From: Squalus acanthias
Lineage: Eukaryota
Direction: 5' to 3'
Assembly (NCBI GenBank): GCA_030390025.1
Contig: CM059432.1
Coordinates: 18,478,001 to 18,542,000, forward strand
Length of the DNA stretch: 64,000 nt
Below, piece by piece: positions 22,485 to 64,000 of the stretch. The notes beneath the pieces are model-generated. The model did no database searches. It worked only from the letters and a program-made list of their open reading frames with translations, and was not told the DNA's origin. Every line of letters starts with the position of its first letter. The stretch's first letter is position 1. The translations under genes were made by a program, and so were the position numbers.

Positions 22485-23515
22485 ACACAAAGGTTGTGGT
22501 TGTTGGAGGCCTATCATCTCAGCCCCAGGGTAGCACTGCCAGAGTTCCTCAGGGCAGTGTCCTAAGACCAACCATCTTCAGCTGCTTCATCAATGACCTT
22601 TCCTCCATCATAAGGTCAGAAGTGGGGATGTTTGCTGATGATTGCACAGTGTTGAGTTCCATTCGTAACTCCTCAGATAATGAAGCAGCCAATGCCTGCA
22701 TGCAGCAAGACCTGGACAATATTCAGGCTTGGGCTGATAAATGGCAGGTAACATTTGCACCACATAAATGCCAGGCAATGACCATGTCCAACAAGATAGA
22801 GACATCCCCTTGGCATACAGTGGCATCGCCAAATCTCCCACCATCAACATCCTGGGGGTCACCATTGACCAGAAACTTAACTGGACCAGCCACATAAATA
22901 CTGTGGCTGCAAGAGCAGGTCAGAGGCTGGGTATTCTGCGGCGAATGTCTCACCTCCTGACTCCCCAAAGCCTTTCCACCATCTACAAGGCACAAATGAG
23001 GAGTGTGATGGAATACTCTCCACTTGCCTGGATGAGTGCAATTCCGACAACACTCAAGAAGCTCGACACCATCCAGGACAAAGCAGCCCGCTTGATTGGC
23101 ACCCCATCCACCACTTTAAACATTCACTCACTTCATCACCGGCGCACCGTGACTACAGAGTGTACCATCTACAAGATGCTTTGCAGCAACTCACCAAGGC
23201 TTCTTCGACAGCACCTCCCAAACCCGCGACCTCTACCACCTAGAAGGACAAGGGCAGCAGGCACATGGGAACACCACCATATACAAGTTCCCCTCCAAGT
23301 CACACACCATCCTGACTTGGAAATATATCGCCATTCCTTCATTGTCCCTGGGTCAAAATCCTGGAACTCCCTCCCTAACAGCACTGTGAGAATACCTTCA
23401 CCTCACAGTGGTTCAAGAAGGCAGCTCACCTCCACCTTCTCAAGGGCAATTAGGGATGGGCAATAAATGCCGGCCTTGCCAGCGATGTACGCATCCCAGG
23501 AACACATAAAAAAAC
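22485..23515 (+). mobile_element. LINE-B, 5'-truncated
   Basis: VPQGSVL, MFADD, YSPLAW motifs; A-rich tail. Confidence 0.92.
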
Positions 23516-31612: not shown

Positions 31613-33490
31613 AAAAAGCAGAAGCAGCACGCTAAGCGATCCCACAATCAACAGATCAGATCAAAGCTCTGCAGTCCTGCCACATCCAGTCGTGAATGGT
31701 GGTGGACCATTAAACAAATAATGGGAGGAGGAGTCTCTATGTATATCCCCATCCTCAATGATGGTGGAGCCCCCAGCACGTTGTTGCAAAAGACAAGGCT
31801 GAAGCGTTTGCAACCATCTTCAGCCAGAAGTGCCAAGTGGATGATCCATATCGGCCTACTCCTGAGGTCCCCACCATCACAGAAGCCAGTCTTCAGCCAA
31901 TTTAATTCACTCCACATGATATCAAGAAACAGCTGAGCGCACTAGATACAGCAAAGGCTACGGGCCCCGACAACATCCCGGCTGTCGTGCTGAAGACTTG
32001 TGCTCCAGAACTAGCCGCGCCTCTCGCCAAGCTGTTCCAGTACAGCTACAACACTGGCATCTATCCGACAATGTGGAAAACTGCCCAGGTTTGTCCTGTC
32101 CACAAAAAGCAGGACAAATCCAATCTGGCCAATTACCGCCCCATCAGTTTACTCTCAATCATCAGCAAAGTGGTGGAAGGTGTCATCGACAGTGCTATCA
32201 AGCAGCACTTACTCACCAATAACCTGCTCAATGATGCCCAGTTTGGGTTCTGCCGAGACCACTCGGCTCCCGACTTCATTACAGCCTTGGTCCAAACATG
32301 GACAAAGGAGCTGAATTCCAGAGGTGAGTTGAGAGTGAATGCCCTTGACATCAAGGCAGCATTTGACCGAGTGTTGCATCAAGGAGCCCTAGTAAAACTG
32401 AAGTCAATGGGAATTGGGGGGAAAACTCTCCACTGGCTGGAGTCATACCTAGCACAAAGGAAGATGGTTGTGGTGGTTGAAGTTCAATCATCACAGCCCC
32501 AGGACATCGTTGCAGGGGTTCCTCAGGGCAGTGTCCTAGGCCCAACCATCTTCAGCTGCTTCATCAATGACCTTCCCTCCAACATAAGGTCAGAAATGGG
32601 GATGTTCGCTGATGACTGCAGTGTTCAGTGCCATTCACAACTCCTCAGATAATGAATCAGTCCATGCCTGCATGCAACAAAACCTGGACGACGTTCAGGC
32701 TTGGGCTGATAAGTGGCAGATAACATTCGCGCCACAGAAGTGCCAGGCAATGACTATCTCCAAAAAGCGCGTGTCTAACCACCGCCCATTGACATTCAAT
32801 GGGATTACCATTGCCAAATCCCCCACCATCAACATCCTGGGGGTCACCATTGACAAGAAACTTAACTGGAACAGCCACATAAATACTGTGGCAACAAGAG
32901 CAGGTCAGAGGCTAGGTATTCTGTGGTGAGTGCCTCACCTCGTGACCTCCCAAAGCCTTTCCACCATCTACAAGGCACAAGTAAGGAGTGTGATGGAATA
33001 CTCTCCACTTGCCTGGATGAGTGCAGCTCCAACAACACTCAAGAAGCTCGACACCATCCAGGACAAAGCAGCCCGCTTGATTGGCACCCCATCCACCACC
33101 TTAAACATTCACTCCCTCCACCACCGGCGTACCGTGGCTGCAGTGTGTACCATCTACAAGATACACTTTATGCCAAGGCTTCTTTGGCAGCACCTCCCAA
33201 ACCCGTGACCTCTTTCGCCTAGAAGGACAAGGGCTGCAGGCGCATGGGAACACCACCACCTCCAAATCACACACCATCCTGACTTAGAATTATATCGCCG
33301 TTCCTTCATTGTCGCTGGGTCAAAATGCTGGAACTCCCTCCCTAACAGCACTGTGGGAGTACCTTCACCACACGGACTGCTGCGGTTCAAGGCGGCGGCT
33401 CACCACCACCTTCTCAAGGGCAATTAGGGATGGGCAATAAATGCTGGCCTTGCCAGCAACGCCCACATCCCATAAATGAATAAAAAAAAA
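31613..33490 (+). mobile_element. LINE-B, 5'-truncated, with RT and poly-A tail
   Basis: RT ORFs 31987-32652 etc. ([31 protein letters not shown]); short duplication AGCT at both flanks. Confidence 0.95.
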
Positions 33491-34139
33491 GCTGAAGGCA
33501 CGGCCGCCAATGGTGAGAAGCCCGAACCATTTTCATGGGCAGCTCACTGATCGGTGGGAAGATGGAAAATCCCATTGCTTCTTCAAGGAGCTAAACCGGA
33601 AATGGATGCTTAAAGAAGCGGATGCACTAAGGGACTGGCAGTGGGTCGGAGATTTTTGTGGGACTAGAAGGAGCATTGCTCCTGCTGGCCTCACAAAAAT
33701 AGTGCCATAGCTTTATCTTAGCATTTCCAGAGGGGCCTGCAGTGTTCCCTTTAAGGACCATTGGTTGAGCTGCTCAGTGCTCACTTTCACTGGGTGATGC
33801 GTGCAGTGTAATGCCACAATTGCAGCTGGTTCTTAACAAATGGCGTAGGACCCCAATTTAAATATTTTAATGAGGTTCCCGCATGTTTCACGTAGGGGCG
33901 CTGGATGCCTACACGAAAATCGAGTTGGGTGGCTAGTGAGTAGTAGGTTTAAAAAATAAAATTCTTTGCCTACCACCCCATTTTTCAATGTGAATTGTGG
34001 CAGATGGAGTTTAATGAGAGGAAGTGTGAGGTCATCTACTTTGAAAGGGTTAACATATGAAGACAGCTTGCATAAACTTGGTTTGTATTCCCTTAAATTT
34101 AGAAGGATGAGGGGTGATCTAATCAAGGTGTTTAAAATC

Positions 34140-38432: not shown

Positions 38433-39270
38433 TTATTAATGGAAGTGTGGCTGAGAACAATGTTGCCATATTGATAGCAAATCTCACTCCTCAGCCGCCA
38501 TATTTAGTCAGCTTCTGAGAAAGTAAGGAAGACTTGCATTTATATAGAGCCATTCACGACCACCGGACGTCCCAAAGTGCTTTACACCCAATGAAGTACT
38601 TTTTTGAAGTGTAGCCACTGTTGTAATGTTGTAATGCTTCTCAGAGGAAGAAAACAAGTCCTATCAGATCGAAAATGATGGAGGTGAGTTTAATTTGGAG
38701 CATACATCAGGCAGGCGGAGGGCAGAGCTAACACACCACCCTTCTGTGTGGAAGCAGGCACTGACTGTTCCCGTGGACTGGGTGCAATACACAACATTTT
38801 GCGGCCTCCAGGGACATGCAGATGCCCGATATGTGCCACTTTTGCCGCGACATCCCACCAGGAGCATCCTAAGCAGGAAACCTCCTCAACTGTGGCTCAG
38901 TGGGTAGCAGTCTCGCCTCTGAGTCAGAAGGTGGTGGGGGTGAAATTGGGTATCGCCCTGTTTGGGCCGTTAACTTTTGAAATTTTGAAAGTTTAGCCCC
39001 AGGCACTAAGGATTCTGAACTTCTACTAAATTGGGTGTTGGTGCCCCAGGAAGGAAGTGGGGCGCTAAATCAAGCGCTAATGACCTCAGTGGGGCGCTAC
39101 AGGGGCGCTACCAGCAGTGCGCTAAGGAATTTCAGGTGCAATGTATTCAGCAATGATCCTTCACACTGGTTCCTTCCTGCTCTTAAAGGGGAGGTTGCAT
39201 CATTGTGCAGACGATGCTCATTTTCAGCATTGCTGGCTTTGAGGCGACCTGCGAGCAAGTGAATCCCCTG

Positions 39271-41139
39271 ATGGCTATGGCTGTTGCCACTTCTAGGGAG
39301 AGAGCTCGTCGGTTCACAGACGTGGCATTGGTGGCTGGACTGGAGCGAAGGAGGGCAATGCTGTTCCCGGCCACTGGAAGGAGGCCATCACCTCAGGTGT
39401 TCAGGGCAATGTGGAGGGAAGTGGCCCAGGAGGTCTTGGCCAGTAGTGTGGTGGAACGCAGCCTGACACAGTGCCGGAAGAAATTCAACGACCTCAGTCG
39501 GGTGGTCAAGGTGAGTACATGCTTCAACTGCTCCTACATACCAGCATCTGAACCTCAGTCTGTGCACACTGCGCCACCACTCACCCACCAAACATCTTCA
39601 CCTACTCAAACTCACATCCACATCTCACATCTTGCCTATGATCACAGCTATTCAACGACGGCAGGCATACCTCCCAAACACATATCTGGACTATCACTCA
39701 AACACATTTGTTTCTCTTGCAGGCCAAGCTCCCCTAGGAGGGAGCAGCAGAGAACAGGCGGGGGAGATGTGCAGCTCCAGCAGCTCTCAGACCTTGAGGA
39801 GCGAGTGCTGCGACTCATTGGGCAGCAGGTAGTGGGCGCCATGGCCGTCGGCGACATCAACCCCATGGGGGGCAACAACAGTATGTTCAGCCCCTCTCCT
39901 TCTCTCATCCCACTTCCCCATCACACCACAAACCTTTCTCACTTTCCACTTCCTGAGAATGTCTGCGTTCCTTGCTCCATTCCTGCCCCGCTGTCCTCAC
40001 CTTAACGCGAGTCTTGTGCCTTTATGCTTTCAGATAATCAGCAACCAGATGACCAGCCTATCCCTGAGCCTCCCACGGAGAGTGAGGAAGGAGAAGAGGA
40101 GGAGGAGCAAAGCACCGTGTCACTGCATCTCTCACCCGCAGGCACCACCTCAGATACTGGCACTGCGCGATCTTTAGAGGCAGCTTTAGTAGAGGGGTCT
40201 GCACTGGGTGATGCACTGGGGATGAGCGGGCTGCAGCAAGGCCAGGGGGAAAGGGTAGCTCGGGAACCAGCTCCCTGGAGGGCGAGTTCTGCTGCACAGG
40301 ACTCAGATGAGGACCTTGATGGTGAGGTGTTCACAAAAAGGGTGATGGGCATGCACTCCGAGATGGTAGATGCAATGGCAAGGGTGCCCGAGAGCCTCTC
40401 GGCAATGGTAAGGAGCGTGGAGGAGTCCGCCTCCAACATTGCACAGAGCTCTGCGCACACCATGGAGCCCATCATTTCCACTCTGCAGAGTTTAGTGGAC
40501 TTCCAGAGAGACCGTGTGGATCCAGACCTCATGACGCGTGTCATGGGCGATGTGGCAGTTTCCATTGCAGCACAGGCGGAAGCGACACAACATCTTAATG
40601 CTGTTATGCAGTCAATGGTTGCTGCCATCGAGTCTCAGACTGCTCTCATGCAGTCTCAGCTTGATGCCACGAAAGATCTGACTGCTGCCATAGTCGCTGG
40701 GACCACCACAGTCCACTGGGGATCTGACGGTGTCGTAGCAGCCCAGCAATCTGTGCTCCAGCAGATTGGTAGGGATGCTGAGGTGCTGCCCCGGGGGAGT
40801 GGCAGTGGGTCAGTGGAGCAGGAACCTGCTGTCCTCTCTCAGGACGACAGCATTCCTGATTCCACCACTGCCACACCGCCATTGCCCTTGCCGTTGCCTG
40901 TCATCCAGCCAGCCTAGACTGCTGCCGCCCAGCCTGAGGTGGTGCAGTGTACAGCTGGGCCTTCTAGACCCAGAGCTGGCCGAGGGTGTCCTGCAAGGCC
41001 ATCTGTAGTCTCTGGCACTGACACTCAGCAGCCTTCCACCAGCCCTGCTGCAGCCACTGGGGAGATACTACTTAGGAGCTCTAGATTAGAAAAGGGGACT
41101 GTAAAGAGGGAAGGCAAGGGTTTGCACAAGGGTGATTAG
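39271..41139 (+). pseudogene. Harbinger Myb/SANT-like gene (exons 39271-39510, 39723-39880, 40034-41139), inactivated
   Basis: RFTD..WREVAQEV..RSLTQCRKKFNDL; GT-AG introns; frameshifting deletion giving TAG at the start of exon 2; internal TAG at 40915. Confidence 0.85.
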
Positions 41140-43653: not shown

Positions 43654-43770
43654 TCTGATGAAGGATTGTCACGGAAACATTAACCTGCTTTTCTCTTTGG
43701 GTGCTGATGCACCTGCTGTGTATTTCTTGTTTTATTTCAGGATCTCCAGTAATTGTAGTTTCCCTTTTAA
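43654..43770 (+). mobile_element. Penelope-like terminal fragment with degenerate hammerhead core
   Basis: CTGATGAAGG..GGAAACATTAACC followed by GATGC..CCTGCTG..TTTTATTTCAG. Confidence 0.5.
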
Positions 43771-44004
43771 GCTATATGTTAACCAGTGTTTGGAGTTTAT
43801 TTTCTCTGGGCTTCATTATTATTATTTTTTTTTAGCAATTTTCATTTCCATCAAATTCAATGCCTTGTAAGTTTTCTTTTTCTATCATTAAAATAGTAAC
43901 ATTGGAGCTAAATTGGGTGTAAACTGGAAAACCTTAGAATCAGTCTGAGAAGGCCGTGGAGCACAGAGCCTGGGCAGGGCTGCAAAGTAGAGAATCGTGG
44001 AGTG

Positions 44005-44690
44005 CCATGGAGTGGGAAGGCCCTGGTGTGGAGTCTGGGAGGGCCCTGGTGTGGAGTCTGGGAAGGCCCTGGTGTGGAGTCTGGGAGGGCCCTGGTGTGG
44101 AGTCTGGGAGGGCCCTAGTGTGGAGTCTGGGAGGGCCCTGGTGTGGAGTCTGGGAAGGCCCTGGTGTGGAGTCTGGGAGGGCCCTAGTGTGGAGTCTGGG
44201 AGGGCCCTAGTGTGGAGTCTGGGAGGGCCCTAGTGTGGAGTCTGGGAGGGCCCTGGTGTGGAGTCTGGGAAGGCCCTGGTGTGGAGTCTGGGAGGGCCCT
44301 AGTGTGGAGTCTGGGAGGGCCCTGGTGTGGAGTCTGGGAAGGCCCTGGTGTGGAGCCTGGGGGGGCCCTGGTGTGGAGTCTGGGAGGGCCCTGGTGTGGA
44401 GTCTGGGAAGGCCCTGGTGTGGAGCCTGGGGGGGCCCTGGTGTGGAGTCTGGGAAGGCCCTGGTGTGGAGTCTGGGAAGGCCCTGGTGTGCAGTCTGGGA
44501 AGGCCCTGGTGTGGAGTCTGGGAGATCCATGGTGTGGAGTCTGGGAGGGCACTGGTGTGGAGTCTGGGAGGGCCCTGGTGTGGAGTCTGGGAGGGCCCTG
44601 GTGTGGAGTCTGGGAGGGCCATGGTGTGGAGTCTGGGAGGGCCATGGTGTGGAGTCTGGGAGGGCCTTGGTGTGGAGTCTGGGAGGGCAT
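44005..44690. repeat. 23-bp minisatellite, ~29 copies (CCCTGGTGTGGAGTCTGGGARGG)
   Basis: Direct tandem array with no spacers; decays into related sequence on both sides. Confidence 0.97.
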
Positions 44691-47374
44691 AGAGAGGAGC
44701 ATCTGGATGATCCACGGTGTGGAGAGTCTGGCAGGGCGTGGAGAGGAGAGTCTAGGAGGTCGTGAAGAGGAGCGTCTGGGAGGTCCACGGTGTGGAGCAT
44801 CTGGGATTTCAGGTGTATGGGGTGAGAGGAAATGTAGCGGCATGGATAGAAAGTTAGTTGATGGACACAGTATAGATTCTCTTAGGTGATATAGTTAAGA
44901 GGAGAACCCTGAGATACTGAGAATATCTTCACTGGTTCAAAAAAAGCAAAGAGGAGATTTAATAGAGGTTTTAAAATTATAAAGTATTTTGTTAGAGTGA
45001 ATAGGAACAGACTATTTCCTCTGGTTGGGAAGTAACTGACGAGGGATCAACAATTTAAAATTGTCACTTTGAAAGTTAGGCGAGTGGTTAGGAGAAATAT
45101 CTTGATTGAGAAAATTGGTACAGCAATGACATTGTGCGGGGGAGTGGAGGTGGGGAAACTGGTCTTGGGCGATAGTGTTTGATGGGAGATAGCGAATCAC
45201 AGCGCATTTCACACCCCGCCCAATTTTCTCTTGCATTGAGTCAAATTCGCTCTGTATCTTTTTAAAGTAGGGTGGATAAACATTTGAAGCAGAGGAAGAT
45301 GCAAACCTATGGGGAGAGAGCAGGAAAAAATTGGATGATAAGTCAAACACTTCCTAGCACCCAATTCAAGAGTGCCATCGACAGAGGCCGAGGTTTTTCG
45401 GCAGTTTGTGATTTTCTGACCATTATGCAGAGAGATTACCTGAAGAAAGTGCATGATATGGAGGAGCCTGAAGGGGGAACAAATAAATGGACTGAAATTC
45501 TAAATTTGTATAATTATTCTTTTGAGCTTATATTTTCCTAGTCTCCCCTCATGCCTGTCCATTTGTCACCTTCTGTAGAGCCACCTTAGGAACTAGTTGT
45601 TTGGGAAATCAAAAGTGTGCACCCACATGATAAAGCCATTGCACCATAAACGTTTGATGCATGGCATGAAAACATTCACCATCTTCCTGTGGGTTAAGAT
45701 TCAATGATCTCCTTTTAGTGGGACATTTGTGGCTTTATACAGGAATCAAAGCAAAAGCGCATTCTCTTTCGTCCCATTTATTCTCTTGCTGGGTTCCCCC
45801 AGCTCCTTTCTGCCAGTCTTAGCTCTTTCCATTGATTAGTGCGAAGACCATTCAATGACCTCTGTGGTGGATGGGTAACCAATTCCTGGACCTCTGGCGA
45901 TGGCAATCTCTGATTCGCACGATGCTCCTTCCTCACCTGTTTCCACCACCTTGTCAGGAATCGATCTGCGGAAACCGCTGGGGCGAGCCTTCAGTCATTT
46001 TTGTTGCACTATATTTACAGATAGAGCTTGCGCCAACTCATTCAGAGCATGCGGACATTTCAAGTTAATTTATTTTATCTTTACCAGGCTGACAAAAAAA
46101 TTTGGTGGGAGCAGGACACTGCAACTTTAATAGCTCTGACTGCGAGTCGCACTCTGACTTTCCCTTAAGGAGCACAGCTACCACTTAGCTTTCTATCATT
46201 GTGACAACAGGGCAGAATTTCACCTCTGATGCAGTTTGTACCCCTTTGCCAGCTGTGCCAGCTGTTGCTGATCTGTCACTTTGTATTAGAGTAATGAATG
46301 AGCTTTTATATGTGGCACTGCTGGGAGGTGTGAGACATATGTCGCACCTTGCAAGCTGGCCTCAACATACCTATTTTAGTAAGGTCAACTTGACATGTAT
46401 TTGCACCAGATCCCCTTGAGGCAGAAAGTGAAGGCTGAATCGGCCAGGAGAGCATTGGAATAGTAGGAGCTGTTGTCATACTATGTTCGAATAGCAATGA
46501 GGAAGATGAGTGTATACGCTTCTTTTCTGCCACTTTCTATTTGTTCCAGCACATTAAGAATTGAAGCACAGACACCTGAACTGATCCAAACCAAACTAAA
46601 ACATTCTTTAAAAATTGGCAACAAGGAGCAGTGACCCACTTTCTTTCACAGAAAGAAACAAAATGATATATTGCTGGTTCATTTATAATACACGGCATTC
46701 CCTTTTGATTAAGAAGTAACAGGCTAGATTTTCCACTTGGCTGTGAACTGGGCGCTGACCCTGCTGTAGTTGCCAGGGTCAGTGTCATTCAAATATTACA
46801 GGAGAGCCATATTTTCCTCATTTAACTATGCTTTTGCATGCACCTGCCCACCCTCTGGGAATTGCAGGGAAGCGCAGATGTGGCACAACGAGTCTTTCAG
46901 CACTTTTCTGACCCCTGCCGACCCCAGTTCCGCCAGAAAACCCATTGGAAGCGGGGATGGGAATTCTAGGCTTACTCGGCTTAGTGAAGCAACAGTTAGT
47001 TAGCGGTGGCCAGGGAGCAGATAGAATTTCAGATAGGGTTCTAGAATTCATGTTAGAAAGAAGACAACCCCAAGCAGAGCTGATCGGGGGGGGGGGGGAA
47101 AGGGAGGAGGTTACCACATCCGACACTGCCAAATCTACCACTCCATGCATGTGGAAATATGTAGGAAAATCTTTAATGACCTTACTAGATATTGATTATC
47201 ATTGATAAGCTCAAAACTTTAACAACATCATTCATCATAAAGTGGGTGCTCCCAATTGTAAAACTGGGTCGTGATCCATTATACCCATTTTGCTCCATTT
47301 GACTTCTGCAATCATGATTTAAACTGGTTCAGGGTACACCCAGCAGATTTTGGATGGATGTGTGTAAATTAGTG

Positions 47375-48587: not shown

Positions 48588-50832
48588 GCCTGAGACACTG
48601 AGACTATCTCCATTGGTTCAGCGAAGGCAAAGGGGAGATTTAATCAAGGTTTTTAAAATTATGAAGGGTTTTGGTAAAGTGTATAGGAAAAGACAATTTC
48701 CTCTACTTGGGAAGTCAGTGATGAGGGCTCAGCCATGTAAATTTGTCAGTAAGAGAGTTGGAGCAATGATAAAGTAGAGAGAGAGAGATCGTTTCCACTG
48801 GTTGTCAAGACAATAATGAGAGGGAACAAATTTAAGATAATCACAAAGAGAATTAGAAAAACATTCTTGACACAATGGCTGAGAATGTGGAATTCATGGT
48901 CTGTTTTTGAAAGAGTATTAGATAGATGATTGAAAGATACAAACACTGAAGGACAGAAGAAGCAAGCAGGAGGGTGGGAGTGGACAGTTGACACACATGG
49001 GGAAAAAACACTGGCACGAAGTAAAGGCCTGATTCTGTCCTGTAAACATTCTTTGAATCTATGAATAAGTGAACACGCATTGCTTGGCCAGGACAACTGA
49101 ATCCACTTTGTGCATCATTTCAGATTGGCTCCCAAGTGACTTATACCTAAAAGCAGTTATAGATATTTGCATTTTCTGATATCATAATAGTCTCAGATGC
49201 ATAGGTACATTAGGCACAAATAGTTTCAGTAAATTGAAAATAAAACAGATTGTATTCCACTGCACTATCATAGCCGGTCCTGAGACAATCTAAGAGGCTC
49301 ATATGACTACATTTCTTCTCCGTATTTAAAAGCAAATATTAGTCCATGTCTGATGGGTAAAATGGATTTTGAAAAAAATTGCCTTCTTTAAAGAAATTTT
49401 TGTGGTAACTTAATTATTCTATGAAGGCAGTTGCACCTCCTCATCCAGTGATTTTTATAATTTACTTTGCTATCCTTGAGAAAGAAACCACAGACTGTTA
49501 CAGGAACTTTTAGTTTATTTTGTTGAAATGATTGACAAAATGGTTAATATATTCTCTAAGGTCTCTGACCATCGAGCGATAACCCCATCCATTAATTATT
49601 AGAATCAAGGCTAGATCTTCCCGCCTTGGTGCTCCTGCTGCCAGCCTGGAGCACATACTGGGAAATTGTGCACCCCACCCCAGCCCGTGACTTTCCATCC
49701 ATTAACAAAAATGGTTAAAAGATTATGGGCTGAGGGGGGCATAGTTTTGCAATCCTCTCTGGCAAAGAGCACCAACGTGGAAATTCACAGCCTAAAGGCC
49801 TGGGCTTTATTCCTATCTTAAAATTAAATGGAGAAGGAAGAAACTGCCCAGATTGTCCTGCTAAGTAGTGCCGAGGCATTGGCTGAAAGGACGGTGGCCT
49901 CGATATTCCATAGACTGGCAGAACCCCCGTCAAAGTGGCGTAAAAGTCTGAAAATGGCCATTTCCCTGCAGGTTCCGCCAGCCTCACCGGACTTATGGTA
50001 GGAAACTGGTCGAACCCCAATGGAATTTCAGGGCCAGTCTGTTAGAAATGTCACTAAATAATATTCTCGTTAGTAAATTGCACATTCGCAGGGAACTGTT
50101 GGTCCCACAATTTTTGGGGGAATGTGCCCCCAAAATGGATTGATAACCCAATATTACAACCTTTGCTGCTGAAATTGAATTGAAATCTGATGTATTAGGA
50201 AAGAGCAGCGTGTTAATGAGTATCATGGGGTTGGGGGTAATATAGTAGCATGGATAGAGGATTGGTTAATGGACAGAAAACAAAGTAGGGATAAACGGGT
50301 CTTTTTCAGGTTGGCAGGCTGTAACTAGTGGGGTGCCGCAAGGATCAGTATTGGGACCTCAGCTATTTACAATCTATATTAAATACCGAGATGAAGGGAC
50401 CGAGTGTAATGTATCCAAGTTTGCTGACGATACAAAGCTAGGTGGGACAGTAAGCTGTGAGGAGAACACATAGGGGGAAAAATTAGGTCGCGCCCCGTTT
50501 GGGGCGCAAATATCGTCTGGACGCAAAAATTAGCGCCTGGCGCTAATTATCGCCACTGACTGGAAACTTCACTTTTACCGCCCCGGGAGGTGAGTGGAGC
50601 GCTAAATCAGGCGCTGCACACCTGTCTTAAGGCGCAAAGGCCGAGCAGTGAGGCGCTAACTCAGCGCGCGAGCGCAACACAGGTGCTGCCAGTTAGCGAG
50701 GGAACACAGACACACTGGCGCCGGCCAGTTCTTAAAGGGGGGGGCGGCCAACTTGCTCCCCAGCCACACCCTGCTCATTGCAGCCTTGAATCTCGGCCTG
50801 GAGAGACCTGTGAATCCATTTTGCTGCCAAGG

Positions 50833-52802
50833 ATGGAGAGGGTGACAGAACGAGATCAGCGCTTCACCGAGCGGGCCTTGGATGCTCTGGTTGGCGCGGT
50901 GGAGCGCAGAAGATCTATACTCTTCCCTGAGAGTGGCAGGAGGCCTTTGCCACGCGAGTACAGAAGAGTGTGGAGGGAGGTGGCTCAGAGCGTCTCCTCC
51001 AGGAGCATGGTGCCCAGGACCCATGTTCAATGCCGCAAAAAGTTCAACGACCTCACTCGGGTCGTCAGGGTGAGTCGCTTTTTCTCAATACCTCTCCATC
51101 CCTCCATCTCAACCTCACTCTATGGCCAGAGGGTCTTAAAACCCCAATGCACAACACTCATCCAACACCTATGGCCCTTTCATGAAACACACACACACAT
51201 TCCACACTTTGCATACAGTAAGGGCTATTCACCTATGGGAGGCACATCAGGCAAGACCATGGCTGCATACAGTAAGGGCTATTCACCTATGGGAGGCACA
51301 TCAGGCAAGACCATGGCTGTATATTTACTCAGATGCTGTCCTTTTTCTTGCAGGCCAAGCTGGCGCATAATAGGAGACAGCAGCAACGGACAGGTGGAGG
51401 GCGGCCTCAGCTGCAACCCCTCAGCGATCTTGAGGAGCGCGTCCACAGGATTGTGGCAAGCCGGGTGATCGGTCCCGTCGCCACTGGAGACGCTGACCCC
51501 GTTCTGGACAGCAATGGTAAGGTCATCACCTTTTTGTCCTCTGTCCTTCCACTTGTCCCTCACAACACCAGCCTTTGACACTTTCAATCCAACTTGCTAA
51601 CTCGCTGCACTTATTCCTCCCTTACTGCCACCCTGTCCACACGCTAAAGCCACTCTTGTACCTCCCTGCTTTCAGATGGTGATTCACCAGCTGAGGAGAC
51701 GGGCCCTGAAGCTGCCAGTGGGAGTGAAGCTGCAGCCGAGGAGGAAGAGGAAGCCGGAGCATCAGTGCCACCCTCTCCCGAGGAAGCCCATGCCCACACT
51801 GAGAACACGCCTTCCGTGGAGGGGAGCAGGGGGGAAGGGTCTGATGAGGGTGAAGCTCCAGGACCCAACGGGCTGCAGCAACGCCATGGGGGTAGGGAAG
51901 AATGGGGGCCTTCTCCCCAGAGGGAGAGTATGCCAGCGACTCCTACTGCAATGGACGCAGAGGAGGAGCGGCTGATCGCAGAAATGAACACCCAGGCGGT
52001 GGGCATGCACACTGAGCTCATGGGTGCAGTGGGAAGGGTGCCCGAATGCATTGAGTCACTGGCAAGGAGTGTGGAGCACTTCGCTGTAGCACAGGCAGAT
52101 GCCACACTAAAGCTTAGTGCTGCAATTCAGTCACTGACTGCCGTGATCCCATCTCTGACTGCTCTCATGCAGACTCAGATTGAGGCCACGCGAGCACTGA
52201 CTGCTGCCAACCTCGATGGTTTGTTCACATGTCCCCGGGGCTCTCACCGCGCCGCAGCAGGCCAGCAATCTGTGCTCCAGCAGATTGCTCCGGATGCTGA
52301 AGTGCTGCCCCGTGGGAGTGCCAGTGTGTCAGTCGAGCAGGGAGTTGCTGTCCTCTCTCATGATGACAGCATTCCTGCTGCCAACACTGTCACTTCTCCA
52401 CTGCACTTGCCACCGCCTGTAGGAGAGACTGCTGCCGCCCATGCAGAGTTGGTGCAGTCTGCAGCCGGGCCCTCCAGGCCCAGAACTGGTCGAGGCCGTC
52501 CTTCAGGGGCATCTGCAGTGTCAGGGTCTGACAATCAGCAGCCTTCCACCAGCCTTGCTGCAGCCACTGAGGTCCCATTACGGAGGAGCAGTAGGGTTAG
52601 AAGGGGTAAGTGCGCAAGGGAAGGAGATTACCCTCGAAGGGCAAAAAGTAGGAGGTGTGACAAAATGCTGGTCATTTTTATATTAAAGGCCGAGGTTCGT
52701 GGTCCAACTTTTGTCTCGTGTTTTGGACATTATCTCCAGGTTGTGAGAACCAGTTATGTTAATGACTGTTTTTTTGTGTTTATTTCTATGAGTTTGTCAT
52801 GA
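50833..52802 (+). CDS. Harbinger Myb/SANT-like (trihelix) DNA-binding protein; exons 50833-51069, 51354-51516, 51676-52802; ~508 aa
   Basis: QRFTERALDALV..WREVAQSV..RTHVQCRKKFNDL; GT-AG introns (phase 0 and 1) join into one open frame; acidic region and heptad-like C-terminal half. Confidence 0.85.
51211..51318. repeat. Perfect 54-bp tandem duplication in intron 1
   Basis: 51211-51264 is identical to 51265-51318. Confidence 0.95.
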
Positions 52803-52963: not shown

Positions 52964-54124
52964 CTAGAAGCGGCTTGCTATCAGCCGTTGACGGACGGCC
53001 CTTGCAGTTTCACCATTGTGGGCCACCCTCCCGCCTTGGTGCTGCTGATGATCATCCTCCTCGTCCTCTTCCTCCTCTTCCTCCTCCTCCTCTGGTGGTG
53101 CTCCAAGGCCTGGTGGCATTGGCTGGGTCCTGACGATTGCCATGTTATGCAACATGCAGCACACAACTACGAAGTTGGATACTCGCTCAGGCGAGTACTG
53201 CAGGGCTCCTCCAGAATGGTCGAGACAGCGGAACCGTTGCTTCAGCATGCCGATTGTGCGCTCAATGATGTTCCTGGTAGCTTGATGGCTCTCGTTGTAC
53301 CGCAGCTCAGCAGGGGTGTTGGGCGTACGGAGCGGTGTCATCAGCCAGGTGCTCAATGGATACCCCTTGTCCCCGAGAAGCCAACCAACTGGCTGATGCG
53401 GTGCCTCGAAAAGTTCTGCCACAGTAGTCTGGTGCAGGATGAAAGCATCGTGGCAGCTGTCAGGATAGTGGGCATTGACAGCGAGTATCAGCTGTCTGTG
53501 GTCACAGACCAACTGAACATTCAAGGAATGGAACCCCTTTCTGTTCCGGAATTCCTCGGCATTCTCATGTGGAGCACGCAAAGCCACATGCGTGCAGTCA
53601 ATGGCGCCCTGCACCATGGGGAAGCCCGCTATCCTCACAAAGCCCAGAGCGCGGTCACGCTGCTTATCTAGGGTCATGGGGAAAGAGATGAACTCTCGTC
53701 TCCTTTTAAAGAGGGCATTTGTGACCTGCCGGATGCAGCAATGCACCGCAAACTGGGAGATATTGGCGAGGTCCCCAGCAGCAGCTTGAAATGAGCCAGT
53801 AGCATAGAAGTTGAGAGCCACTGTGACCTTCACTGCCACCGACAGAGACGTCCTGGACCTCAGTTGAGGCTGCAGATCTGGCTGCAGCAGGTGGTAGAGC
53901 TCAGTGACCACCTCCTTGTTGAATCGCAGCCTTCGCAAACACAGCTCCTCAGACATATGAATGTAGGAGAGCTGTTCACGATATACCCTGGGAGGGTAAG
54001 CTCTCCTGTACATACGCCTGTTGGCCCTCCTCCGTCTGGCCATCATTGCCACTCTCTCTCTGCATCTCTGTGTCCTCCGATTCAGCTGGAGCAGGACGAC
54101 GCCCCCATTCAGTGCAGCCCCCAT
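52964..54124 (-). CDS. PIF/Harbinger DDE transposase (HARBI1-like), 386 aa from ATG at 54124
   Basis: Uninterrupted ORF with GAIDCTH, NRKGFHSLNVQ, SCHDAFI, LLGDKGYP, RNIIERTIGMLKQRFRCL, CCMLHN; acidic tail. Confidence 0.95.
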   Translation of the reverse strand: MGAALNGGVVLLQLNRRTQRCRERVAMMARRRRANRRMYRRAYPPRVYREQLSYIHMSEELCLRRLRFNKEVVTELYHLLQPDLQPQLRSRTSLSVAVKVTVALNFYATGSFQAAAGDLANISQFAVHCCIRQVTNALFKRRREFISFPMTLDKQRDRALGFVRIAGFPMVQGAIDCTHVALRAPHENAEEFRNRKGFHSLNVQLVCDHRQLILAVNAHYPDSCHDAFILHQTTVAELFEAPHQPVGWLLGDKGYPLSTWLMTPLRTPNTPAELRYNESHQATRNIIERTIGMLKQRFRCLDHSGGALQYSPERVSNFVVVCCMLHNMAIVRTQPMPPGLGAPPEEEEEEEEEDEEDDHQQHQGGRVAHNGETARAVRQRLIASRF

Positions 54125-56169
54125 AGTCTCTTTGCAAGCAAAGTTATGAAGGACAGCAACCAAAGTACCAGCGAAGTTAGGATCAGTAGGCAAAACTACC
54201 TCACAAAGCGTTGACTCAATGCAGAAGTCTCTCTTTCTCTCTCTCCGAATCTCTCTCTCTCTCTCAGAACGAGTGGTGCAAAAATGTCAACCACAGAAAA
54301 AGACAGGAAGAGGCCCCCTTTAAATAGCGCCCCCCCCCAGCCCCACAGCGATTGATAGCGTTCCAGTCTTCCGGTCGTTGGATGCGCCAGGCGGTAAGGC
54401 AGGGGGCGCCACTCAATTTCCGCTCCGGGGCGCCACAAGGGCGTTGCACCATGGAATGACGTCACAATCTGCGCGCGCAGGTGGTCGCGGCGGTAAAGTT
54501 TAGGGCCGCCGCACAATGTCTAGTTAAGTTCCCGAGCGGCGCAAACATCGCTGCGCCCGGGCGCTAGCGGCTTTGCGCCCCATTAGCGCCCTCTTAAGGC
54601 GCTAACGGGAGGCGCAACCAACTGAATTTTTCCCCCAAAGAGTCTGCAAAGGGATATAGATAGACTAAGTGAGTGGGCAGTAAGGTGGCAGATGGAGTGT
54701 AATGTAGGGAAATGTGAGGTTATTCACTTTGGTAGGAAGAATAGAAAAACACAATATTTTTTAAATGGTGAGAAACTTTCAAATGTTGGTGTTCAGAGAT
54801 ATTTGGGTGTCCTCGTGTAAGAAACACAGAAAGCTAGCATGCAGGTACAGCAACCAATAAGGAAGGCAAATGGCATGTTGGCCTTTATTGCAAGGGGGTT
54901 GGAGTATAAGAGTAAGGAAGTCTTGCTACAATTGTACAGGGCCTTGGTGAGACCACACCTGGAGTACTGTGCACAGTTCTGGTCTCCTTATCTAAGGAAG
55001 GATATACTTGCTTTGGAGGCGGTGCAACGAAGGTTCACTAAATTGATTCCTGGGATGAGAGGGCTGTCCTATGATGAGAGATTGTGTAGAATGGGCCTAT
55101 ACTCTCTGGAGTTTAGAAGAATAAGAGGTGATCTCATTGAAACATACAAGATTCTGAAGGGGATTGACAGGGTAGATGCTGAGAGGTTGTTTCCCCTGGC
55201 TGGAGTGTCTAGAACTCGGGGGCATAGTCTCAGGATAAGGGGTAGGCCATTTAAGACTGAGATGAAGAGGAATTTCTTCACTCAGAGGGTTGTGAATCTT
55301 TGGAATTCTCTGCCCCAGAGGGCTGTGAATGCTGAGTCTTTGAGTATATTTACGGCCGAGATAGATAGATTTTTGGACTCTAGGGGAATCAAGGGATATG
55401 GAGATGGGGCGGGAAAGTGGAGTTGAGGTCGATGATCAGCCATGATCTTATTGAATGGCGGAGCAGGCTCGAGGGGCTGTATGGCCTTCTCCTGCTTTTA
55501 TTTCTTATGTTCTTATGTTCTTATCACTGCAGCTGTTAGAGCTTAATAGTGTGTTCCTACCTGTATTTGTTTATGTCATGTTAAAATGATGAAAGCCTTG
55601 TGCAGTGATCTATATACAGCAGAGCGCTCGGTTACTTCTGTGCACTTCTGTAGCCTGAATATTATACTCATGACAGTGATTGATGATGAATGGTGCCTTT
55701 TGCAGTAGCTGTTACTTGTAATCCTTGCAGTCATAACCTCTCTGGAAATGCACAGCACGGCACTGAAGTCCCAGGTTTGACAGGATCAGATCCAAATGAC
55801 AATTTAGGACGACAAATCAGCATGAGTAACATTTAGAGATTGAGCGCGACCCTGTTATATGTCAGAAAGAAAAATATTATTATACTTAACTGGGCCTTTC
55901 ATATCGTCGTGCTCCCACACCATGATCAGACCATCCCTTGAGGGCAGGAATGCTGACTAACTGTACACTAAGGAAGACCAAGTTGTCAATTTGCTTGATA
56001 ACCACACAGGGATACTTAGGTGAATCTTGATTCCAGCTGTGTTTTAACAGGTTACCCAATTCTTTGTTTCCTTCACCCAGGGCTCAATGGTAAGCTTATT
56101 TGAGTGAGTCAGCCCACTATTGTTTCTGGTGTACGGGTTTGAATCCATTTCAGGAGAATTGAACGAAAG

Positions 56170-57560: not shown

Positions 57561-59660
57561 GGGCTGGATTTTCAATGACCCGTGGAGTCGGGTTTGGAGG
57601 CGGGGGGTGGGGGGTTGGGGGGTTAAAGTTGCACATTCGGGGGTCCCGACCCCATCCCGACTCCAACCCGCCTCCATGCCAATTTCTCTGGCGGCGGGTA
57701 CCCGACCTGGTCTGAGACCCGACTCCCCGAGGCGGGAAGGGATTAGTGACAATTAACAGGCACATTTTTGCATAATCCCTATTTTAAAAAGAAAAGTGTG
57801 GGCTTCCCAACAGGTGGCAACCACGCCAAGTTATCGGGGCGGGCCGTGGGTCTGCAGGGGTTGGAGGGGTCGATATGTCCGGTGGGCAGGTGAGTAATGG
57901 GTGCATGTGTGCAGAGGTAAGTGTGTAAGGTAAGTGCTAAGTGTGGGAAAAGGTTTTACTTACCTTAACTTCCTCCTGCAGGTGTCAGCCCTTCAGTTCT
58001 CGGGAGTTAGAAATCTCACCGGCACAGAAAGCAGGAAAGCCGTGGACCTGTCTAAAACAGCAGCCTTCTGTTTTATAAGAACATAAGAACATAAGAAATA
58101 GGAGCAGGAGTAGGCCAATCGGCCCATCGAGCCTGCTCCGCCATTCAATAAGATCATGGCTGATCTGATCCTAACCGCCAATCTACTATCTATCACAGAA
58201 ACATCTCCTGCATCTAACAGAATTGCACACACGAAATAGGAGCAGAATCAGGCTACACAGTCCCTGGGCCCGCTCCACTACCCACAGGGCCATGACCGAT
58301 CCGAACCTAGACTCATGTCCAAATTCCTGCCCGCTCTCCGTAACCCTTAATGCCCTTTACTTCTAGGAAACTGTCTATTTCTGTTTTAAATTTAATTAAT
58401 GTTGTAGCTTCTACAGCTTTTTGTGGTAGCATATTCCATGGACCTACCACCCTCTGAGTGAAGTAGTTCCTCCTCATCTCAGTTTTGAAAGAGCAGCCCC
58501 TTATTCTAAGACTATGTCCCCTAGTTCTCGTCTCACCCGTCATCGGGAACATCCTCCCCGCATCCACCCGATCCAACCCCTTCACAATCTCATATGTTTC
58601 AATAAGATCGCCTCTCATTCTTCTGAACTCCAATGAGTAGAGTCCCAATCTACCCAACCTCTCCCCATATGACCACCCCCTCATCTCCGGGATTAACCGA
58701 GTGAACCTTTTTTGCACTGCCTCGAGAGCAAGGATGTCTTTCCTTAAGTAAGGACACCAAAACTGTATGCAGTATTCCAGGTGCGGTCTCACCAATACCT
58801 TGTACAACTGAAGCAATACCTCCCTATTTTTATATTCTATCCCCCTAGCAATGAAAGCCAACATTCCATTTGCCTTCTTAATCACTTGCTGCACCTGCAT
58901 ACTAACCTTTTGAGTTTCGTGCACCAGGACCCCCAGATCCCTTTGCACTTCAGTACTCTCCAGTTTCTTGCCATTAAGATAATAAATTGCTCTAGGATTT
59001 TTCCTGCCAAAGTGCATCACCTCACACTTTCCAGTGCTGTATTCCATCTGCCAAATCTCTGCCCACTTACTTAGCCTGTCTATGTCCCCTTGCAGGTTTT
59101 TTATGTCCTCCTCACTCACTACTTTCCCTCCCATCTTTGTATCATCTGCAAATTTTGATATGTTACACTTGGTCCCTTCCTCCAAATCGTTAATATAGAT
59201 TGTGAAGAGTTGGGGACCCAGCACTGACCCCTGTGGAACACCACTAGTTACTGATTGCCAGTCTGAGAATGAACCATTTATCCCAACTCTTTGCTTTCTG
59301 TTAGATAGCCAATCCTCTATCCATGCCAGAATATTAGTTTTCTGTGGTGGAATGATTTCTAACTCAGCCTGAGAGGAAGGACTGAAGTTAGAAATCATAT
59401 TGTGAGTGTTTGACATGTTCACAGAGCTGTCAAACGCTGATATTTCATCTGTCAAAAGCTCTTGACAGATGAAATGTCAGTCTGTGACGTCACCTGTTGC
59501 CGGGTGGCCCTTAATTGGCCTGCTGAGCCCACTGGGCGGGCTCAACAAGGTCAATCAAGGGGAAATACAGTGGGTTGGCCATATCTTGATGGAGGCGGGT
59601 TCACAAGCCAGAATGTGTGATTCCCGACCCCAACCCGACCCCAGATTCAAAATCCAGCCC
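57561..59660. mobile_element. Harbinger-type MITE containing a nested CR1
   Basis: TIR GGGCTGGATTTT at both ends; perfect 3-bp TSD TAC (57558-60 / 59661-63). Confidence 0.9.
58080..59337 (-). mobile_element. CR1 LINE with duplicated tail; ORF2 remnant still open
   Basis: ORF 58313-59455 (CR1 part from NILAWIEDWL onward) has no stop; two tail modules. Confidence 0.95.
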
Positions 59661-62571: not shown

Positions 62572-63042
62572 AAAGAAAGAAAAGAAAGACTTGCATTTCT
62601 ATAGCGCCTTTCATGACCTCAGGACATACCAAAGCGCTTTACAGCCAATTAAGCACTTTTGGAGTGGAGTCACTGTTGTAATGTAGGAAACACGGCAGCC
62701 AAATTGTGCATAGCAAGCTCCCACAGACAGCAATGTGCTAATGACCAGATAATCTGTTTTTGTTATGTTGAGTGAGGGATAAATATTGGCCAGGACACCG
62801 GGGATAACTCCCCTGCTCTTCTTGGAAATAGTGTCATGGGATCTTTTACGTCCACCTGAGAGCAGACGGGGCCTCGGTATTACATCTCATCCAAAATACG
62901 GCACCTCCGACAGTGCAGCACTCCCTCACCACTGCACTGGAGTGTCAGCCTAGATTTTTGCGCATCAAGACACTGGAGTGGGACTTGAACCCACAACCTT
63001 CTGACTCAGAGGCGAGGGTGCTACCAACTGAGGCATGGCTGT
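62572..63042 (-). mobile_element. Deu-domain SINE
   Basis: Reverse complement match to 61269-61722. Confidence 0.88.
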
Positions 63043-63220
63043 CAGAAGTGGGGATGTTCGCTGATGACTGCACAGTGTTCAGTGCAATTCACAACTCCTC
63101 AGATAATGAAGCAGTCCATGCCCACATGCAACAAGACCTGGACGACAGTCAGGCTTGGGTTGATAAGTGGCAAGTAACATTCGCACCACAGAAGTGCCAG
63201 GCAATGACTATCTCCAACAA

Positions 63221-63436
63221 TGGTCATGATGCGGAGATGCCGGTGTTGGACTGGGGTGGACAAAAATGAGAAGTCGCACAACACCGGGTTATAGTCCAAC
63301 AGTTTTATTTGAAATTACGAGCTTTTGGAGCGCTGCTCCTTCGTCATGTACCTGACGAAGGAGCAGAGCTCCGAAAGCTCGTAATTTCAAATAAAACTGT
63401 TGGACTATAACCTGGTGTTGTGCGACTTCTCATTTT
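63221..63436 (-). mobile_element. Short Penelope-like retroelement insertion with inverted (palindromic) pLTR
   Basis: 12-bp TSD TATCTCCAACAA (63209-63220 / 63437-63448); 88-bp inverted arms centred at 63349/63350; hammerhead cores. Confidence 0.8.
63349..63383 (+). ncRNA. Minimal type I hammerhead ribozyme motif
   Basis: CUGACGA-A-(GGAGC AGA GCUCC)-GAAA-GC-UC; palindromic AGCU stem III; only 3 bp of stem I (UAC/GUA). Confidence 0.65.
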
Positions 63437-64000
63437 TATCTCCAACAAGCGAGCGTCTAACCATCGCCTCTTTACATTCAACGACATTACCATCGCCGAA
63501 TCCCCCACCATCAACATCCTGGGGGTCACCATTGACCAGAAACTTAACTGGACCAGCCACATAAATACTGTGGCCACTAGAGCAGGTCAGAGGCTGGGTA
63601 TTCTGCGGCGAGTGTCTCACCTCCTGACTCCCCAAAGACTTTGCACCATCTACAAGGCACAAGTCAGGATTGTGATGAAATACTCTCCACTTGCCTGGAT
63701 GAGTGCAGCTCCAATAACACTCAAGAAGCTCGACAGCATCCAGGACAAAGTAGCCCACTTGATTGGTACCCCATCCACCACCTTAAACATTCTCTCCCTC
63801 CACCACCGGCGTACCATGGCTGCAATGTGTACCATCTACAAGATGCACTGCAGCAACTCGCCGAGGCTTCTTTGGCAGCACCTCCCAAACCCACGACCTC
63901 TATCACTTAGAAGGACAAGGGCAGCAGGCGCATGGGAACACCATCACTTGCAAGTTCCCCTCCAAGTTACACACCATCCTGACTTGGAAGTATATCGCTG

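Follow-up and report, generated by a model that had tools for sequence, protein, structure and literature searches.

The closest described systems are the Penelope-like elements (PLEs), and the layout reported here, an inverted pLTR, a tail, a target-site duplication (TSD) and a palindrome at the junction, is already published for them (PMC3846280, PMC8557442). An optional tail of 30-40 nt is described in PMC8557442, PMC11167929 and PMC3846280. In the in vitro experiments reported in PMC11167929 a PLE protein was able to cleave and to extend the two strands alike; its two start sites bound the tail, and cleavage by the ribozyme is dispensable for insertion. The supplement of PMC4209133 gives a consensus for the minimal hammerhead ribozymes (min-HHRs), including a G-C-U type of stem III and examples with a stem I of 2-3 bp, and its Fig. 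S3 has no shark among 56 motifs. How PLEs make their inverted repeats and tails is presented as an open question in PMC8557442 and PMC11167929, and the family described in this work bears on it. A search of the literature, subscription papers and Repbase entries set aside, yielded no paper dealing with PLE palindromes in sharks or with the position of inversion centres with respect to the hammerhead.

The insert analysed here lies in a 64-kb window, which is the whole stretch of 64,000 nucleotides of Squalus acanthias DNA that was studied. It is very probably a PLE-type inverted stub, i.e. two stubs of a pLTR end arranged head to head. The locus itself is a dead stub in a dead LINE and carries little weight alone. 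The short and young copies of its family, which are flanked by TSDs, end at two defined positions and have clustered junctions, lend themselves to setting two-ended priming against fold-back.

The insert, its target site and its family

The identical 12-mer TATCTCCAACAA is found on both sides of the insert (63221..63436), at 63209-63220 and 63437-63448, in agreement with the preliminary description, which had proposed a 216-bp insert with a perfect 12-bp TSD. A paralog in the window represents the empty site: the left flank aligns to 32766 and the sequence following the right TSD copy from 32767, and since the paralogous LINE passes uninterrupted from 32766 to 32767 the 12-mer is single there. 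The insert has in this way the short target-site duplication of EN+ PLEs, with a length of 12 bp. The LINE which served as target is of mixed composition, and its paralog carries upstream an ORF (31906-32652) matching Pfam RVT_1. No second copy of the insert is present in the 64-kb window.

The window contains many fragments of LINE, SINE and Harbinger type. A SINE-like repeat (62575-63024), of which four long copies are found elsewhere in the window, directly abuts the 5'-truncated host LINE and includes a sub-threshold tRNA-like match on the minus strand (62970-63030). In a Harbinger/PIF-type transposon an open 440-aa DDE_Tnp_4 frame faces a Myb/SANT-like partner (52964-54286 on the minus strand, 50560-52802 and 39187-40917 on the plus strand); a second Myb-like copy is located at 39187-40005, and 44184-44894 is a tandem repeat region with several open frames.

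Table 1. Features of the insert and of its flanks, in window coordinates
Feature	Position	Strand	Basis or remark
Host LINE, upstream part	63041..63220	+	87-92% to paralogs at 22615 and 32589
Left TSD copy	63209..63220		LINE sequence, 12 bp; single at the paralogous empty site
Four extra bases past the family's usual long 3' end	63221..63224	-	Family ends mostly at 63225/63226
Tail, PLE-type, ~35 nt	63225..63261	-	Left arm only
Left arm, 5'-truncated pLTR-end copy	63262..63349	-	Arm pairing, family alleles
Dead minimal hammerhead	63316..63350	-	C3 to A at 63347, G12 to A at 63326
Head-to-head junction	63349..63350		Central TA readable as part of both arms
Minimal type-I hammerhead, intact core	63349..63383	+	Motif scan, published consensus; cleavage predicted after C63380
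Right arm, 5'-truncated pLTR-end copy without tail	63350..63436	+	Ends 1-3 nt from the family short end
Right TSD copy	63437..63448		12 bp, identical to the left copy
Host LINE, downstream part	63449..64000	+	LINE alignment resumes exactly in register

Self-comparison of the window confirmed the two spacerless 88-bp inverted arms with four mismatches which had been described before. The 88 pairing positions join 63262-63349 to 63350-63437, the mismatches being 63347/63352, 63332/63367, 63326/63373 and 63286/63413, and the outermost pair borrows the first base of the right TSD copy (63437). On the side of the left arm 41 extra bases (63221-63261) are unpaired. The next-best palindrome of the window without spacer and with up to four mismatches measures 25 nt, and five out of five mononucleotide shuffles gave 15-18 nt as the longest of this kind; the fold of the palindrome has a z-score of -25, with none of 200 shuffles equally stable. 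Judging from the letters, the central TA (63349-63350) is a possible 2-nt microhomology. A MITE or other DNA transposon was rejected, as terminal inverted repeats fail with the 41 unpaired bases at the left end. Elsewhere in the window, a second palindrome without spacer (59429-59488) has 30-nt arms which are 83% complementary, is single in the window and has no recognised hammerhead core, and at 33652-33700 inverted arms of 24 nt, likewise 83% complementary, are separated by a 1-nt spacer.

Public contigs were aligned to 63200-63380, a reference which takes in the left arm but no more than 31 nt of the right one. It gives a poor view of symmetric centres at other places and of arms whose start lies upstream by more than about 10 nt. 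Aligned contigs numbered at least 6758 in run X1 (organism A, about 55% of X1 covered), 1887 in X7 (organism C) and 1261 in X19 (organism A), the last being of uncertain kind (perhaps RNA, which is a guess). The count of zero contigs aligned to this segment in X14 (organism G) may be false, by a possible effect of filtering. The family is multi-copy in two of the three organisms compared.

Two discrete 3' ends, about 35 nt apart, become evident in these contigs. The long end lies at 63225/63226 and is followed by unrelated flanks (58+68 contigs in X1, 25+29 in X7 and 11+14 in X19, among the rows listed). The short end is a clip at 63269 in X7 (20 contigs) and at 63267 in X19 (16 contigs), also among the rows listed, with a loose consensus that stays family-like to about 63260. 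The long end is found in three runs and the short one in two; the figures on loose ends rest on 18 of 212 rows, and among those listed a short-end row for X1 is absent. The two ends are those of the optional 'tail' of PLEs. In fifteen contigs of X1 and one of X19 the alignment extends as far as 63220, and the flanks beyond it are similar. Either the element entered one repeat several times, or a source copy had a 3' extension, which could then be the origin of the four extra bases of the insert.

Allele comparison showed the G at 63286 to be private to this copy, with another letter in 99.6% of X1 depth, and the change at 63326 to be a common CpG change in the family. Allele rows near the centre are absent from the listing; here the change at 63347 was assigned to the left arm via the core consensus and that at 63367 to the right arm via one contig. 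Both arms carry the same minority alleles of the family (e.g. T at 63316, about 27% of X1 depth) and therefore derive from one source element. Exact-pattern scans of viral, metagenome and genome contigs from non-animal collections gave no match, which is uninformative on the family. The insert contains no ORF. A peptide search with the 31-aa open frame through the tail returned one match, to a low-complexity repeat only, which was rejected, and with the 42-aa read-through peptide one candidate was searched with zero matches, which is weak evidence. No ORF with a telomerase-related RT and a GIY-YIG endonuclease, by which EN+ PLEs are defined, was linked to the family by these uninformative searches, a point to be set against the reading given below.

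Hammerhead motifs and folding of read-through RNA

The plus-strand motif is composed of a 3-bp stem I (UAC/GUA), C3-A9, an extra A, a 5-bp stem II with G10.1-C11.1, GAAA and AGCU-C, the palindromic AGCU (63376-63379) replacing stem III and providing the palindromic 15.1-16.1, with which a dimer could form its stem III. Stem I needs the central TA, which is common to both arms. Across the family the majority form of this stem is UCAC/GUGA, and the U in the UAC/GUA of this copy may derive from the mirror arm. The min-HHR core (CUGANGA-H, G10.1-C11.1, GAAA, NUH) is found in the plus arm only, the minus arm failing at C3 and G12. In the whole window, both strands included, a relaxed hammerhead scan found three matches, and the two which passed the print filter are the two motifs of the insert. 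None of the nine Rfam matches listed reaches the gathering score; they are mostly generic hairpin models and include no hammerhead. A miRNA gene was rejected, there being no Rfam match at the gathering threshold.

A decayed hammerhead-like motif, followed by a pyrimidine-rich stretch, is present at 43655-43775 (CUGAUGA...GAAACAUU). It was rejected by the stem filter and is single in the window; by resemblance we take it to be, possibly, the remnant of a second and older PLE family.

Most of what the preliminary description had said on the ribozymes holds: the plus core, with predicted cleavage after 63380, is intact and matches the consensus of PMC4209133, the two core changes of the minus arm are present, and the assignment to PLE-type minimal hammerheads fits both this consensus and the G-C-U type of stem III (PMC4209133 Fig. 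S3). A dimer formed in cis by the back-to-back ribozymes is impossible, with one motif dead and the two on opposite strands; because of the latter no transcript carries both motifs as ribozymes.

In a 351-nt read-through RNA of either strand the computed pair probability of stem II is below 1e-12, and the pairing of the arms has a mean probability of 0.96-0.98. The plus-strand hairpin has 70 uninterrupted pairs, G-U included. In the isolated plus motif, stem I is absent from the predicted lowest-energy structure. By the order of the sequence, the complement is transcribed ahead of the motif in both directions. The long hairpin which had been expected of any read-through transcript is thus favoured over the ribozyme by the computed fold. 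Because the read-through folds, as computed, give the hairpin and not the ribozyme, the hammerheads at this locus would almost certainly be silent passengers. If transcribed, the insert would represent a ready-made long hairpin which could feed small-RNA silencing.

Inversion centres and origin of the insert

An inverted 5'-truncated copy joined head to head, as in EN+ PLEs, is what the two arms represent, and inverted junctions are also found in the contigs; the inverted 5' segment proposed for the insert is in this way supported. Fifteen of 16 joints are listed, 11 from X1, two from X7 and two from X19. In all fifteen, one arm reaches 63331-63354 (63343 or beyond in 12 of the 15), while the end of the other arm varies freely between 63246 and 63304. 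Under a null model of uniform and independent ends, with a guessed seed length and with the letters between the sides counted as upstream sequence, the chance per joint is 0.39-0.56, which gives about 1e-4 or less for 15/15 and about 1e-3 for 12/15. These values are indicative only: the threshold of 63331 was chosen after seeing the data, and junction contigs in repeats were heavily filtered (16 joints from thousands of contigs). Two X1 rows of uncertain kind (63284 to 63320 and 63285 to 63320) were left out and, if inverted, would make it 15/17. The clustering of the centres is probably real.

Near-symmetric centres appear as nine small indel rows listed at 63343-63349. Two of them have the best support. 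A centre with a 4-base deletion at TCA/TGA is present in six contigs of X1 and two of X7, at about 100x single-copy depth, and one with a 7-base deletion at CTTC(A)/(T)GAAG in one contig of X7, again at about 100x single-copy depth. At both positions the core and the adjoining upstream sequence are self-complementary. Loose ends past 63346 (20 contigs in X1 and 23 in X7, among the rows listed) have about nine letters in common and then diverge; their agreement of 0.53 and 0.63 compares with 0.54-0.60 expected for 9-10 common letters of 30. Copies of the family, inverted or not, seem to begin preferentially at a 5' boundary some 8 nt ahead of C3, which we infer from an agreement value whose formula is undocumented. 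The letters common past 63346 fit an initiator-like pattern. Candidates for the boundary are a transcription start, a splice boundary or an RT stop, the splice boundary being included because in D. virilis the intron end (base 491, PMC2377424) lies close to C3 (496, PMC4209133 Table S1).

The inversion centre had been placed at stem I of the ribozyme, whose structure was suggested to guide the inversion. The first part stands, in that the centres are non-random and near the 5' edge of the ribozyme in 15/15 joints listed; guidance by the ribozyme fold does not. A template boundary together with microhomology is the better and simpler explanation of the centre, because other copies seem to start there too and the centre does not coincide with the cleavage site.

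For the insert as a whole we lean towards a short single retrotransposition event with two-ended priming and head-to-head joining at the 5' boundary. The enzyme of the element, presumably supplied in trans, would have cut the LINE with a 12-nt stagger, and a separate cDNA would have been primed at either DNA end, the tailed arm arising from the distal start site and the untailed arm from the proximal one. Both cDNAs would have run to the preferred 5' boundary of the family, just upstream of the hammerhead core and whatever its nature, and would then have been joined head to head via a few self-complementary bases, in this case TA. The arms would have been identical at insertion, the four substitutions having been gathered since.

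Identical arms are explained equally well by a single fold-back cDNA, and this counts against two-ended priming; the contigs themselves fit either course. Here priming would occur once, the cDNA would reach the 5' boundary, fold back on a micro-hairpin and copy itself, and the far end would be resolved by an endonuclease or by microhomology, leaving the tail on one arm. The minority alleles shared by both arms and the recurring centres at self-complementary spots agree with such a course, self-priming has been proposed for PLE junction palindromes in PMC3846280, and the tail is ascribed to endonuclease resolution in PMC8557442. However, the right arm stops 1-3 nt from the short end of the family, which corresponds to the RT start site reported for the anole enzyme (PMC11167929), and the microhomology at the right junction amounts to 1 nt only, so that we consider fold-back of a single cDNA rather unlikely.

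It is improbable that a folded hammerhead, as stem I or as a ribozyme dimer, stalls or redirects RT and sets the inversion point. Clustering at the boundary between stem I and core in two organisms would be accounted for, and in PMC11167929 a PLE ribozyme folds and cleaves with the PLE protein bound, but ribozyme mutants in the same report leave insertion in vitro unchanged. Moreover stem I has 3-4 bp, and its 3' strand would be unwound long before RT meets the 5' strand; the lowest-energy fold of the isolated motif is without this stem; and the other arm ends anywhere in the asymmetric junctions. A 5' end made by cleavage was rejected as the centre, which it would place at 63318/63381, whereas the observed one is at 63349/63350.

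Movement of the palindrome as a whole, as a non-autonomous unit of the type of a fold-back SINE or a MITE-like master, appears very improbable. Some junction variants do reach about 100x single-copy depth in X7 and X1, as an amplified palindromic master would give, but the listing contains nine variants of the centre besides 15 asymmetric junctions, coverage drops across the centre to about 5% (X1) and 11% (X7) of the adjacent depth by a crude measure, and the ends, with their 41-nt asymmetry, are not terminal inverted repeats. An assembly or library fold-back artefact, of which perfectly abutting inverted arms are a known shape and with which the lack of a listed contig spanning the whole of 63200-63380 would agree, is extremely improbable in view of the 12-bp TSD, the empty paralog, the LINE resuming in register, the four arm differences (one of them a CpG transition) and the tail on one arm.

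Extended to the family, two-ended priming leads to a more tentative proposal, namely that the many short mirror-image copies might document, in the genome, how a PLE dimer carries out two-ended priming. The template would have a fixed 5' boundary a few bases ahead of the hammerhead core, each end of the cut would use one of the two RT start sites, and the two cDNAs would come together head to head at this boundary. This is conceivable, though we would not yet favour it; if it is true, the origin of PLE inverted repeats and tails becomes countable in thousands of copies, and a minimal mobile unit of about 135 nt is defined.

Comparison with described systems

In the 5' inversions formed by twin-priming of L1, both ends of the staggered cut prime cDNA, joining is by microhomology and the TSD is kept. 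The arms of such inversions are adjacent and non-overlapping parts of one RNA, whereas here both arms copy the same sequence.

The non-LTR retrozymes (bioRxiv 10.64898/2026.07.22.740005) are, in the account given there, small non-coding vertebrate repeats which bear hammerheads and are related to pLTRs, as is the insert, and they include one from a chondrichthyan. They are organised as head-to-tail tandem units, in distinction to the head-to-head pair with TSD of this locus. A retrozyme array was rejected for the insert, which is a single head-to-head pair with no other copy in the window.

Poseidon PAc of Anolis carolinensis, as described in PMC11167929, likewise has two 3' ends bounding a tail, and its extension of both strands fits the two primed arms. 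The ORF of PAc starts in stem II, whereas the matching frame of the insert is closed just after the cleavage site, and the AT-rich ATT target of PAc differs from the LINE of mixed composition which received the insert.

With the metazoan PLE min-HHRs of Cervera and De la Pena 2014 (PMC4209133 with its supplement) the motifs share CUGANGA, the extra base before G10.1, G10.1-C11.1 and GAAA, as well as the loopless palindromic 15.1-16.1, the stem I of 3-4 bp and the U-rich and AU-rich sequences before and after the motif, respectively. The pairs of motifs on opposite strands reported in that work are about 100-700 bp apart; here the cores are 4 nt apart and one of them is mutated.

A close counterpart is the EN+ PLE Pen2a_Av with its kin (PMC3846280; scheme in the legend of PMC8557442 Fig. 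2), in which a 5'-truncated copy is likewise inverted head to head with a palindrome at the junction. A tail of 30-40 nt is described there on one end only, as found here, and the TSD is 8-10 bp versus 12 in this case. In contrast to Pen2a_Av as presented in these sources, the insert is without ORF and without a direct pLTR pair, and consists of two terminal stubs, nearly symmetric and 216 bp in total.
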